From a candidate division FCPU426 bacterium (GTDB lineage Bacteria > Oederibacteriota > Muellerivitia > Muellerivitales > Muellerivitaceae), in assembly GCA_963719085.1 (NCBI GenBank), contig CAVRAL010000004.1, positions 864,001 to 928,000 of the forward strand: a DNA stretch of 64,000 nucleotides, in the 5' to 3' direction. The translations under genes were made by a program, and so were the position numbers. Shown here one piece after another: positions 14,604-19,669 of the stretch (position 1 is the stretch's first letter; each line of letters begins with the position of its first letter). Below the pieces are notes generated by a model, which saw nothing but the letters and a program-made list of their open reading frames with translations, did no database searches and had not been told where the DNA came from.

Positions 14604-15590
14604 TTAAGACGGGACCGATGGGGAATTTTCAGGCGGCGGCTCCGCGGGTTTCTCCGCCGCCGCGGTTTCTTGAATCAGAAACAAAGTTCCCCAAGGTTTG
14701 CCCGAGGGGCTGACGCCCAGCGAGCTGTCAAAACGAAAACGCTTGGGAACCTTTTTCCATTCCAAGTCCACGTAATGGCGCTTGAGATCCTGGCGCTGCT
14801 CGATGGATTGACGCATCACCTCGCTGAGGGGGCCCAGGGGGTTGTCCTTGGCCCGGAGATCGGTGTTGCGCAGGGCCCGGGGGTTTAAATCCAACAGTTT
14901 GCTCACCTTGGCATTGGCGAAAATGACGTAACCATCGGTGGAAACGGCCAGGGCGCCCAGAGGCAGGCCGTCCAGCACGCTTTTCAAAAGCCCCGCGTAT
15001 TCCAAGGTGGCCTGGTCGCCTTTGGCCACCTTTTCGGTCAAAAGATCAATGCGCTGGGCCAAAAGCACCATGTCCTTTTCTTCCTGTACGGTCCGGTAGG
15101 CCAGGTACCCGGAGTGGATGGCCACCACAAAGATCAGGGCGCAGGCCAAAAGGAAAAAAGGATCCATATAGTTAAAGTCGGGATTCTTGTTGTAAAGCAG
15201 GTCCACATAGACCGAGGTGACCATGACCGCCACCACCAGGCTTCGGCCCATGGATTGGCTTAAGGCCGAGATGAAAAAGGTCAGGAACATCACGATCAAA
15301 AGCTGGGTGTCAAAGCCGTCAAAAAGGTAAAGCGCGCCCAAAAGAAAAATCAGGTCCATGGCGAAGACCAGGTATTGGAGCCTCACGCTTTTAAAACGGT
15401 CCTCGTCCCAGAAATAAAAGGGGATGAAGGAAGCCGCCAAAAGGGCGGCGTAAACCAAAACGGTTATTTTTTGAGCCGGATTATTTTGGAGGTAAAAAAA
15501 AGCCAGGCAGCCCAGGATCAGGCTGAGGACCAAGCGGATGAGAAAAACATTTTTTTTAACGTGAGGCGTAGCCTGCTGGAAGGTTTCCAT
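14604..15590 (-). CDS. Membrane protein with C-terminal PAS-like domain
   Basis: About 6 TM helices, coiled coil, then VLDGLPLGALAVSTDGYVIFAN; no output domain. Confidence 0.65.
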   Translation of the reverse strand: METFQQATPHVKKNVFLIRLVLSLILGCLAFFYLQNNPAQKITVLVYAALLAASFIPFYFWDEDRFKSVRLQYLVFAMDLIFLLGALYLFDGFDTQLLIVMFLTFFISALSQSMGRSLVVAVMVTSVYVDLLYNKNPDFNYMDPFFLLACALIFVVAIHSGYLAYRTVQEEKDMVLLAQRIDLLTEKVAKGDQATLEYAGLLKSVLDGLPLGALAVSTDGYVIFANAKVSKLLDLNPRALRNTDLRAKDNPLGPLSEVMRQSIEQRQDLKRHYVDLEWKKVPKRFRFDSSLGVSPSGKPWGTLFLIQETAAAEKPAEPPPENSPSVPS

Positions 15591-16680: not shown

Positions 16681-16709
16681 TCCAATGATTTTTGTTAAAG
16701 GAGTTGACC

Positions 16710-17168
16710 ATGCTCGATTATTTCAAACGCCTCTTTCAATACAATGCCTGGGCGCAGGAGCGGATTTTGGCGGCGCTGGAAAAGATTGATCCCGCGTCCC
16801 TGGACGAAAAAGCCGTTAAGATCGCGGGCCATATCCTTTTGGCCAGCCGCATGTGGCTGAACCGGCTCTTAGGGAAACCCAATATCGACATGTCCCAGGT
16901 TTTAACCCTGGCCCAATGCCGCGCGCTTTTTGAGGAACTCAAGCCCGAATGGAAAGCCTATTTGGAGGGTCTCCGCGAAAACAGCTTAAGTGGAAAAACC
17001 GCTTACCAAACCACCCAAGGCAAGAGCTATGAGAATGTCCTGTCCGATGTGCTGGCCCATTTGGTGAACCATTCCACCTATCACCGGGGCCAGGTCGCCA
17101 CATTGATCAAAAAGTCGGGCGGAGAAGTGCCTTTCACCGATTTCATCGCTTTTGTGAGGCAGCCATAG
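16710..17168 (+). CDS. DinB family protein
   Basis: YNAWA, GHI, HLVNHSTYHRGQ, TDFI. Confidence 0.9.
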   Translation: MLDYFKRLFQYNAWAQERILAALEKIDPASLDEKAVKIAGHILLASRMWLNRLLGKPNIDMSQVLTLAQCRALFEELKPEWKAYLEGLRENSLSGKTAYQTTQGKSYENVLSDVLAHLVNHSTYHRGQVATLIKKSGGEVPFTDFIAFVRQP

Positions 17169-17209
17169 GTTGTCGAAAGGACAATCCTATATAAAGAATA
17201 TATTTAACT

Positions 17210-17246
17210 CCCTCTCCCTTGAGGGGAGAGGGTTGGGGCGAGGGTG
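17210..17246. repeat. REP-like palindrome, family D
   Basis: CCCTCTCCCTTGAGGGGAGAGGGTTGGGGCGAGGGTG; copies at 20561 and 21637. Confidence 0.8.
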
Positions 17247-17344
17247 AATCCGGCTAAGAGGGAGCGGGTCTTTGTTTTATGCCTGTTTTGCCAAGGTTTA
17301 GCGTTCGGATTTTTGTATCGGTTGCCTGGGGCCTGCGTTAAAAT

Positions 17345-17817
17345 AGGGCTACCGGATGAATTGCCCCTGTTTTAGGGGCCCGGGGCTCGTCAAGGGGCGA
17401 ATAGGCCGGTTTAGTCAGCCTTTAAAGGGGATGACTTAAGGCCGGTGGATTCCTAACTTGATAGGCAGAGATGGTTCTTTTAAAAGATGTCGCCACGAGG
17501 CCCATGCCGCTGATCTGACAATCACCGGGTCTTAAGGGAAGGCGATGACCAACCGTTGACCCTCTTTTGAGAAAAAACAACCTCAAGGGAAGCTAAGAAA
17601 CATCCAGAGCCGCTTTTCTGGACGGTTTCGAAGCTTGTGCCTGGAGCAGGCTCAAAAGACCCCAGTCAACGTTGTGATAGACTTTTAAAAGGGAAGGATT
17701 CCAAAAGGCCTAGGATCTTCGTGAGGTTTCACGGGACCCTGGGGATATTACTTACCCCTATTGGGAGGACGGTTCCACCCGCGCGCATCATCAACCCTTT
17801 GCCGCCGGTGTCGCTCT
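17345..17817 (+). ncRNA. Large structured ncRNA, OLE RNA-like, apparently lacking the 3' domain
   Basis: Nested long-range stems visible in the sequence (see findings). Segments CUGUUUU, UUAGUCAGCCUUUAAAGGGGAUGACUUAAGG and CCAUGCCGCUGAUCUGACAAUCACCGGGUCUUAAGGGAA match my recollection of the OLE 5' half in the same order; not checked with a covariance model. Confidence 0.65.
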
Positions 17818-17860
17818 TCGACCCGATTACAAAAAATTAACCCAATGAGGTGTAGTCGTT

Positions 17861-18817
17861 ATGTTACAAGTTGAAAACAAAGTCACCCCCCTGGTGGTTC
17901 CGTCGGCGACGACAAAGACCGCCAAAGCCATGTGGCGCAAGTTCACCCACGACGAGCAGATCGACTGGGGCGGCAGCATCGCGTTTTTCGGCGTGCACGT
18001 GATCGGGATCTGCGCGATTTTCACCGGCATCAGCTGGGCCGCCGTCGCCATGTGTTTCTTCATGTATTACATCCGCATGTTCGCCATCACGGGTGTTTAC
18101 CACCGTTACTTCTCCCACCGCACCTACAAGACCAGCCGGGTATTCCAGTTTATGCTGGCCTTCCTGGGCTGTTCCTGCGGCCAACAGGGCCCGCTTTGGT
18201 GGGCCGCCCATCACCGCCATCACCATAAGTACTCGGACACGGAAGAGGATGTGCACTCCCCCGGCCTTCGCGGCCTTTGGTGGGCCCACCTGGGTTGGAT
18301 CCTTTGCAAAAAGTACGCCCCGACCAAGGAAGAAAACGTGAAGGACTTGACCAAGTATCCGGAACTGATGTGGATCAACAAGTACCACGGGATCGCGCCT
18401 TTTCTTTTGGCCGTCGGCATCTTTTTCTTCGGCGCGTTTTTGCAAAAGGTCGCTCCCGGTCTTCACACCAACGGCCTCCAGATGATCGCTTGGGGGTTTT
18501 TCCTCAGCACCACCCTTCTTTATCACGGCACCTTCTGCATCAATTCGCTGGCCCACATTTTGGGCAAGAAGCGCTTTGAGACGGGGGATATGAGCAAAAA
18601 CAGCTTCATCCTTTCCATGATCACCATGGGAGAAGGCTGGCACAACAACCACCACCGCTATCCCTACTCGGAACGCCAAGGCATCTATTGGTGGGAGATC
18701 GACATGTCCCACTATGTGCTGACGGTTTTGTCCTGGTTCGGGCTGGTGTGGGACATCAAACTGCATCCTGAGGAAATTTACCAGGAAGCCAAAGGCCGCA
18801 AGGAAGTCGCGGCTTAA
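17861..18817 (+). CDS. Delta-9 type acyl-CoA/acyl-lipid fatty acid desaturase
   Basis: His boxes YHRYFSH, HRHHH, GEGWHNNHH; WWEID; RBS GAGGTG. Confidence 0.93.
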   Translation: MLQVENKVTPLVVPSATTKTAKAMWRKFTHDEQIDWGGSIAFFGVHVIGICAIFTGISWAAVAMCFFMYYIRMFAITGVYHRYFSHRTYKTSRVFQFMLAFLGCSCGQQGPLWWAAHHRHHHKYSDTEEDVHSPGLRGLWWAHLGWILCKKYAPTKEENVKDLTKYPELMWINKYHGIAPFLLAVGIFFFGAFLQKVAPGLHTNGLQMIAWGFFLSTTLLYHGTFCINSLAHILGKKRFETGDMSKNSFILSMITMGEGWHNNHHRYPYSERQGIYWWEIDMSHYVLTVLSWFGLVWDIKLHPEEIYQEAKGRKEVAA

Positions 18818-18840
18818 GTTTCTAAAAGGTTTCTGATTAA

Positions 18841-18877
18841 AAAAATAGAGGGGATCTATGATCCCCTCTATTTTTTT
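18841..18877. terminator. Bidirectional intrinsic terminator
   Basis: AAAAATAGAGGGGATC-TAT-GATCCCCTCTATTTTTTT. Confidence 0.85.
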
Positions 18878-18915
18878 GTCCCGGGCCCGTTCGAGAAGCA
18901 AAAAAACGGCTTTGG

Positions 18916-19044
18916 AACCACGGATGAACACGGATGCACACAGATAAAGCTTAAACAAATCCAAAGGGTTCAAAGTTTTTAATATCCCCCACGGATTTGA
19001 GATTATCCCTATCCATCTGTGTGTATCTGTGTCCATCTGTGGTT
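18916..19044. repeat. Inverted-repeat element of tandem CACGGAT/CACAGAT units (family C related)
   Basis: AACCACGGATGAACACGGATGCACACAGAT...ATCTGTGTGTATCTGTGTCCATCTGTGGTT. Confidence 0.85.
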
Positions 19045-19129
19045 AATTAGGTTTTGTCTTGCTTGACAGCCGCTCCGCCCTCTTTTAACTTGAGACCCGT
19101 TTCAAACCCATTCCCCATCAGGAGGCCGC

Positions 19130-19669
19130 ATGCCCGAGGAAATTGAAGTCCCCACTGAGCATTTGCATGAAGCGATGGAAGAAGGCGCGGAAGAATCGAA
19201 AGAAAAATGGATCTTGGGCGTGGCCTTAAGCTCCGCCCTTTTAGCCGGCTTCGCGGCCATAGCGGCCCTGTCCGCCGGGCATAACGCCAACGAGGCCATG
19301 CTGGACCAGATCAAGGCCTCCGATCAATGGAACTATTACCAGGCCAAGGGCATCAAATCCATGGTTCTGGAATCCAAACTGGAGCTCTTGAAAGCCCAGC
19401 ACCACGCGGTTTCCAAGGATGACACGGACAAGGTGGCCCAGTACAAGGACGACCAGGAAAAAATCAGCGACGAAGCTAAGGAAGACGAGGAATCCTCCGA
19501 GTCGCACCTGAAGCACCACGAGAACCTGGCCTTCAGCGTGACCTTTTTCCAAGTGGCCATCGCGGTAGGCGCCATTTCCGCCCTGGCCCGCCGGCGCGCC
19601 TTTTGGTTTGTCAGCTTAGGCTTCGGAGTGGTGGGAATTATATTTCTCTCGATGGGATTCTGGGGTTAA
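19130..19669 (+). CDS. DUF4337-like membrane protein
   Basis: ASDQWNYYQAKGIK, FQVAIAVGAISAL. Confidence 0.8.
   Translation: MPEEIEVPTEHLHEAMEEGAEESKEKWILGVALSSALLAGFAAIAALSAGHNANEAMLDQIKASDQWNYYQAKGIKSMVLESKLELLKAQHHAVSKDDTDKVAQYKDDQEKISDEAKEDEESSESHLKHHENLAFSVTFFQVAIAVGAISALARRRAFWFVSLGFGVVGIIFLSMGFWG

Follow-up and report, generated by a model that had tools for sequence, protein, structure and literature searches.

A conserved structured RNA between the promoter and the start codon of an SCD-like desaturase gene, probably its mRNA leader, in an uncultured candidate phylum

The region 17352-17860 of the 64,000-nucleotide stretch of DNA analysed here (the window) is probably the 5' untranslated leader of a fatty-acid desaturase mRNA, transcribed from a promoter at 17293-17344 and read through to a terminator at 18839-18877, and the conserved fold of this leader would act in cis. 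At the level of sequence, comparison of five copies shows the position, orientation and gene linkage of the RNA, the conservation of blocks and of base pairs, and the lack of a terminator and of a conserved open reading frame (ORF). What the alignment appears to hold is an element placed as a cis-acting structured 5' leader should be, between a promoter and a Shine-Dalgarno (SD) sequence, with neither a terminator nor an ORF to itself, and with base pairs that seem to be kept by compensatory change. An earlier note on this DNA had described a structured RNA that appeared to be co-transcribed with a delta-9 desaturase; the observation is confirmed as real and more than chance. Of the roles that the note had offered, that of a cis-regulatory leader co-transcribed with the desaturase is favoured by the comparison (invariant -10 box, shared promoter layout, no terminator, linkage in 5/5 copies).

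A non-coding interval of 692 bases runs from the stop codon of a DinB-family gene (16692-17168) to the desaturase ATG at 17861; the neighbour genes in the window are DinB, EamA, DUF4337 and DoxX. Outside the leader itself, the locus has the following features.

17200-17251, + strand: dispersed hairpin repeat just after the DinB gene, outside the conserved unit
17293-17344, + strand: conserved promoter-like block, with AAGGTTTAGCGTTYGGATTTTT, a -35-like GTATCG (17315-17320), an 18-nt spacer and a -10-like TAAAAT (17339-17344)
17847-17852, + strand: SD sequence GAGGTG, 8 nt ahead of the ATG at 17861; GAGGTGT is invariant in 5/5 copies
17861-18817, + strand: SCD-like (delta-9 type) membrane fatty-acid desaturase of 318 aa, as judged by ORF, Pfam and structure match
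18839-18877, no strand: bidirectional intrinsic terminator, a perfect hairpin of 18-19 bp flanked by an A-run and a T-run, after the desaturase stop

The product of 17861-18817 matches the Pfam family FA_desaturase (PF00487, E 1.6e-19), the mouse SCD1 structure (PDB 4ymk, E 2e-30) and the structure of human stearoyl-CoA desaturase (1e-29), and its three histidine boxes, HRxxSH, HRxHHK and HNxHH, align with 4ymk. Its match to the NCBIfam DesA family falls under the cut-off (89 vs. 400 bits). These similarities indicate an SCD-like (delta-9 type) membrane desaturase, whose regiospecificity is not readable from sequence.

The -10-like TAAAAT that the earlier note had placed at 17339-17344 can be read directly at that position, and it is invariant in 5/5 copies. 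In the five-copy alignment, conservation sets in abruptly at 17293, the sequence upstream being unalignable, and the promoter-like block then consists of the almost invariant AAGGTTTAGCGTTYGGATTTTT, 17 variable bases and the invariant TTAAAATA. A consensus sigma-70 scan did not call this block; we infer a promoter at 17293-17344 from conservation and orthology, and transcription would start near 17351. Readings of the block as a sigma-54 or an extended -10 promoter were rejected, as the spacing, judged by eye, does not fit. Many orthologous desaturase genes have one promoter layout in common (a T-run, then a GTTATC-like hexamer and, after an 18-nt spacer, TATAAT), and the window's succession of GGATTTTT, GTATCG, 18 nt and TAAAAT fits it. 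The distance from the -10 box to the ATG is 39-387 nt in sister-genus orthologs, 452 nt in the second genome that carries the RNA (G004) and 522 nt in the window. Since the promoter is orthologous and shared, the long RNA sits between promoter and SD, as a leader does. In the five copies, the interval from the RNA to the SD contains no conserved promoter-like box, and there is little room for a second promoter, because only 33-34 nt separate the ATATTAC loop from the SD in L058 and L055. The layout recurs upstream of the desaturase in L023-L050, where the T-run and the GTTATC-like hexamer are followed, after the 18-nt spacer, by GGGTATAAT.

The earlier note had seen no terminator between the RNA and the desaturase ribosome-binding site and a strong one only after the desaturase. 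This agrees with the absence of any + strand terminator-like site in 17345-17860 and with the perfect hairpin at 18839-18877, the region around which (18815-18900) folds at -36.9 kcal/mol (z -6.7). A scan of our own for a hairpin plus U-run, which recovered the control terminator, found none in the leaders of the window and L055; it returned weak, irregular candidates far upstream, at leader position ~66 in each of L056, L057 and L058 and, in L057, at 238 as well, and no terminator close to the SD in any of the 5 leaders. No ORF of at least 10 codons is common to the five copies in start, frame and stop, and a leader peptide was rejected for want of such a conserved upstream ORF.

The five distinct copies are those of the window, of G004 (L058) and of three metagenome contigs (L055, L056 and L057); L054, which had the same score as L058, is not counted separately. 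With R1, a covariance model built on the core (window 17440-17710), the copies reach 148-315 bits, with 233 bits for both L055 and L056 and 148 bits for L057. In 5/5 copies an orthologous desaturase (88-97% amino acid identity) adjoins the RNA directly downstream, on the same strand and in the same orientation, which bears out the synteny between RNA homologs and desaturases that the earlier note had proposed as a check. Homologous RNAs with unrelated neighbours, which it had named as the refuting case, do not occur among the five, and 0/5 copies were found apart from a desaturase; the synteny test is a weak one, because the five copies are close kin. The gene upstream is DinB in the window, L056 and L057, and a divergent gene for a 326-aa membrane protein in L058 and L055, the window ortholog of which (75% identity) lies ~1.7 kb further up, at 14604-15590. 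The RNA stays with the desaturase while the upstream neighbourhood changes.

The distribution of the RNA is narrow. In a BLAST search with the leader, all matches outside G000 and G004 fell at query positions 21-111, which correspond to window 17190-17280 and to the dispersed repeat; with this repeat set aside, the RNA is present in 2/41 relatives and in 2/31 genomes of the family. A search with R1 found it in 2/99 genomes of the phylum, once per genome, these counts including the window's own genome. The sole other genome is G004, which belongs to a different genus of the same family. Another genome of the window's genus (82% complete) lacks both the RNA and a desaturase match, and it is uninformative on the RNA because the desaturase match is also absent. 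Searches with blastn and nhmmer against the upstream regions of other desaturase orthologs found the G004 copy alone. A pattern scan for the invariant hairpin picked out four metagenome contigs and two genome contigs, which R1 resolved into three new copies, two records of the G004 sequence and one match on a Latescibacterota contig, which was dismissed as chance at 7.7 bits.

Downstream of the start site proposed above, the leader can be divided into five parts.

17352-17384, + strand: 5'-terminal hairpin (H1 and H2), beginning at the putative transcription start, with 1 compensatory pair in H1 and 2 in H2
17385-17471, + strand: domain 2, an irregular long hairpin (H3-H7) that holds the invariant GGGGATGAC (17427-17435) and CTTGAT
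17472-17701, + strand: domain 3, the multi-branch core, with H8 and H9 (17472-17486 with 17682-17701) as its long-range closing helices
17709-17758, + strand: two 3' hairpins, H19 and after it one of GGGG...CCCC whose loop motif ATATTAC (17745-17751) is invariant; the conserved fold ends here
17759-17846, + strand: C-rich, G-poor, non-conserved linker, of which ~17766-17838 is mostly gaps in the relatives

The conserved fold comes to ~410 nt. Two invariant blocks fall within domain 3, one at 17558-17594 that corresponds to hairpin H15 and its A-rich loop, the other at 17634-17658 (hairpin H18), and H19 has 4 pairs with compensatory change. Against window 17766-17838, two of the four relatives show full gaps and the other two partial gaps, the window carrying an extra ~70 nt that they lack. 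From ATATTAC (17745) to just before the SD, 5/5 copies have 33-102 nt with a C fraction of 0.30-0.39 and a G fraction of 0-0.18. The earlier note had put the ribosome-binding site GAGGTG ~30 nt past a closing stem; GAGGTG does stand at 17847-17852, and the closing stem, near 17817, proves specific to the window and is not part of the conserved RNA, because 17766-17838 is mostly without counterpart in the relatives and the conserved fold ends at ~17758.

Several measures point to a conserved RNA structure. The window leader folds better than its shuffles on the + strand (z -2.82, with 0/100 shuffles as good) and has z -2.12 on the - strand. For the five copies, RNAalifold predicts 125 pairs in 19 helices, 22 of the pairs with compensatory change; the pairs are counted on the alignment that gave the fold, and five sequences, all close kin, limit the power. 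By an independent count 90.8% of the cells in this fold are paired, a share that falls to 36-59% once the partners are displaced by 1-3 columns, and on none of five measures is the observed value attained by a column shuffle (0/500). Two of the measures are robust to relatedness, namely the pairs in which both sides have changed (22 vs. 12.1 +/- 2.4 in shuffles) and the further pair types (67 vs. 57 +/- 3.2). G-U cells outnumber A-C cells 91 to 19, which argues for an RNA on the + strand, an argument that is partly circular as the fold was predicted on that strand. The longest runs invariant in the five copies are 17558-17594 (36/37; 14 + 22 nt) and 17634-17658 (24/25; 9 + 15 nt), followed by 17427-17435, 17682-17691 and 17745-17751, and indels are confined to loops and the linker.

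These data bear on whether the leader could be a spacer with little or no function, left by an old insertion or expansion that moved promoter and SD apart, which folds as any RNA of 500 nt would and whose conservation comes from a short divergence time. Some of the comparison fits such a spacer: leader identity to G004 is 0.72 vs. 0.63 at four-fold sites of the adjacent gene, and 214/446 leader columns are invariant vs. 30/66 four-fold sites, such that average conservation is barely above that of silent sites and much of the leader may drift nearly freely. The extra ~70 nt of the window, the restriction to 2/99 genomes and the orthologs that make do with a short leader lean the same way. On the other hand, invariant runs of 36/37 and 24/25 bases are unexpected where fewer than half of the silent sites are invariant, both robust pair measures exceed their shuffled values, and the indels keep to loops and linker. 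We therefore consider a functionless spacer quite unlikely. A control region at the DNA level, in which the invariant blocks serve as transcription factor sites or roadblocks and not as RNA elements, is highly improbable. The fully or almost invariant block 17293-17314, upstream of the -35-like hexamer, could well be bound by a protein in this way, but the other blocks stand as much as 300 nt downstream of the one promoter that can be recognised, and the compensatory changes, together with the bias of G-U over A-C, are signatures of a + strand RNA.

The RNA does not correspond to a described family. Searched against Rfam 15 (4227 covariance models), the 64-kb window gave no match at gathering score to any family, and with the limit relaxed to E 10 the region 17100-17950 gave five chance-level matches, none of them relevant and none of them OLE; the four other RNA copies likewise gave nothing relevant, and OLE was not among their matches. 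By these searches, the RNA belongs to no catalogued family and appears to represent a new, narrowly distributed leader family. OLE RNA forms a particle with OapA, OapB and OapC. It is large and ornate, with multiple domains and long invariant blocks, and in this the window RNA is alike. Cold, short-chain alcohols and Mg2+ are among the conditions tied to OLE phenotypes (PMC10898510), and these overlap with the stresses that a desaturase helps against; the overlap that the earlier note had drawn is real as far as the phenotypes go and for the window RNA stands as an analogy. In contrast to OLE, which is ~600 nt long and is found in Bacillota, the window RNA is ~410 nt long, belongs to an uncultured candidate phylum, and is a leader directly before the SD of a gene. 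Identity with OLE (RF01071) was rejected on the mismatch with the model and on the differing size, host and placement.

The second role offered by the earlier note, that of an OLE-like partner RNA in a membrane-stress unit, is unsupported, as no Rfam family matches and no copy stands away from a desaturase. In its general form, it would make the RNA a stable stand-alone non-coding RNA, made from the same promoter, released by processing or factor-dependent termination, and with a trans-acting role or a place in a ribonucleoprotein that might reside at the membrane. A size of ~410 nt, a multi-domain fold and long invariant single-stranded or loop blocks do resemble large ornate RNAs more than typical leaders, and the C-rich, G-poor linker could be a Rho entry site at which the RNA ends before the gene. 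We nevertheless regard a stand-alone RNA as unlikely: no intrinsic terminator lies ahead of the desaturase, OLE and every other Rfam family fail to match, and 0/5 copies occur by themselves. Moreover, the desaturase would then demand a promoter of its own, while the linker contains no conserved promoter-like box and is reduced to 33-34 nt in two copies, and in the sister genera this slot is filled by another RNA or left nearly empty.

In the proposed sequence of events for the cis-acting leader, transcription would begin from 17293-17344 at about 17351 and run through leader and desaturase to 18839-18877. The first ~410 nt would fold into the 5'-terminal hairpin, the long irregular hairpin, the multi-branch core with its long-range helix and the two 3' hairpins, to be followed by an unstructured C-rich linker and then by a strong SD. 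The fold would act in cis and set the desaturase output after transcription has started. Among possible mechanisms, we rank first a stabilisation or conditional decay of the mRNA through the 5' hairpin and fold, second a Rho-dependent premature termination, itself conditional, on the linker with its many Cs and few Gs, and third a control of ribosome access, for which a cspA-like refolding sensor is possible. The input would be a signal tied to the state of the membrane, low temperature being our guess as the most natural candidate; a small-molecule or protein ligand is the alternative.

Predictions for the SD region give no support to a classic melting thermometer. The unpaired probability of the SD, a purely thermodynamic prediction, ranges from 0.19 to 0.57 across the five copies, the predicted pairing partners differ, and predicted accessibility between 5 and 45 C follows no consistent trend across the copies. 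A conserved helix that hides the SD was not found in the five copies. Pairing of the SD with ACCUC of the invariant H15 was dropped, as chance alone would yield a match of 5-6 bp within 450 nt, and covariation is absent at the one position that varies (U or C before GAGG).

Long structured leaders with regulatory roles are known from Escherichia coli. The cspA leader is thermosensing, and the rpoS leader, of more than 500 nt, has an inhibitory fold and is subject to activation by sRNAs and to Rho attenuation. The window leader resembles both in that a long structured leader lies between a promoter and a strong SD, before a gene that is expected to matter in the cold, and in having a 5'-terminal hairpin and a possibly Rho-sensitive untranslated stretch. 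The conserved fold in the window (~410 nt) is far larger than the cspA leader; it shows no relation to either by sequence or Rfam, and neither an SD-occluding helix nor a temperature trend could be predicted for it. Position, orientation, linkage to a single gene, conserved junction and loop nucleotides and covarying stems are all riboswitch-like. However, the leader falls in no known riboswitch class, is larger than nearly all aptamers, and has no recognised expression platform, whether terminator or SD-sequestering helix. We know of no riboswitch tied to desaturases, and a full-text literature search, at the level of titles and listings, found no described RNA element before bacterial desaturase genes.

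Desaturation in bacteria is controlled by proteins such as DesK/DesR of Bacillus subtilis, DesT of Pseudomonas aeruginosa, and FabR. Los and Murata reportedly described, in 1994, a cold-dependent stabilisation of cyanobacterial desaturase mRNA. In the DesK/DesR, DesT and cyanobacterial cases the regulated function is the same as at the window locus, and the cyanobacterial one indicates that mRNA stability can carry a cold signal. DesK/DesR and DesT are membrane sensor kinases or acyl-CoA-binding repressors, whereas the conspicuous conserved element in the window is an RNA.

Orthologous desaturase genes show what else can occupy this slot. In a first sample, 20/24 other genomes of the family had a close desaturase ortholog, and none of these orthologs carries a leader of similar sequence. 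In some orthologs the leader, judged by where the shared -10 box stands, is short (-10 box 39-72 nt before the ATG), which shows a long leader to be dispensable for the gene. Five orthologs, the first to be aligned, have a second structured leader (type B), which measures ~335 nt from its TATAAT -10 box to the ATG and whose predicted fold has 68 pairs, 16 of them compensatory. With model R2, type B is found in 7/99 genomes of the phylum, as one copy each, all within this family and 7/7 directly upstream of the desaturase; the loci, none of which matches Rfam, are as follows.

L023:1106-1440, type B leader
L034:1093-1431, type B leader
L028:1070-1404, type B leader
L027:2464-2804, - strand, type B leader
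L026:1127-1470, type B leader
L033 and L065, further type B loci

Type B is like the window leader (type A) in occupying the same slot, with a promoter of the same kind and a matching SD context, and in being structured and single-copy, and it differs in its ~335 nt from -10 box to ATG and in its unrelated sequence. R2 scores at most 2.3 bits on the window leader, and R1 finds nothing in the type B genomes; a relation between the two types, rejected on this basis, is not detectable by sequence or model score. The C-rich linker of type A is not common to type B.

That a large conserved RNA separates a delta-9-type desaturase from its promoter suggests that membrane fluidity is controlled post-transcriptionally, and so does the type B fold that sister genera carry in the same slot; the lineage is a poorly known and uncultured one from soil or peat. 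A bolder reading, which we hold to be possible but rather doubtful, is that the leader is a sensor RNA that reads membrane-lipid status directly, by refolding with temperature or by binding a lipid-derived ligand (acyl-CoA or acyl carrier species). If this were true, it would be the first RNA-based switch of fatty-acid desaturation, and two unrelated large leaders in the same slot within one family would make the desaturase a recurrent target of RNA sensors. Sensing of temperature or of a lipid ligand would also add a new input class to RNA regulation and provide a compact cold- or lipid-responsive expression element. If the leader does nothing but stabilise its mRNA, it would be an ordinary lineage-specific leader. 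The link to OLE should be dropped either way.

Several observations were made on the surroundings of the desaturase. The protein of 326-328 aa encoded at window 14604-15590 (- strand), L058:687-1667 (- strand) and L055:3488-4468 (+ strand) has a membrane N-terminal half, and its sole Pfam matches are weak and below threshold (DUF4118, DUF2142). Its gene is divergent from the RNA-desaturase unit in G004 and L055, and in the window EamA and DinB intervene; the protein might be a membrane sensor linked to the desaturase. The dispersed hairpin repeat at 17200-17251, of the form CTCCCTCTCCC...GGGAGAGGGTTGGGG..., has many copies per genome in 24/41 relatives, other families of the phylum included. 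On the 3' side, a DUF4337 gene (window 19130-19669) follows the desaturase in 16/30 fetched desaturase loci (L022-L048), its copies outside the window's locus being 64-81% identical to that of the window, and desaturase and DUF4337 form a conserved gene pair. Between the desaturase terminator and the DUF4337 gene lies an inverted repeat (18896-19064), which has arms of 50 nt that are 74% complementary, an inner 18-nt pair that is 89% complementary, and ACGGATG/ACAGAT-like units.
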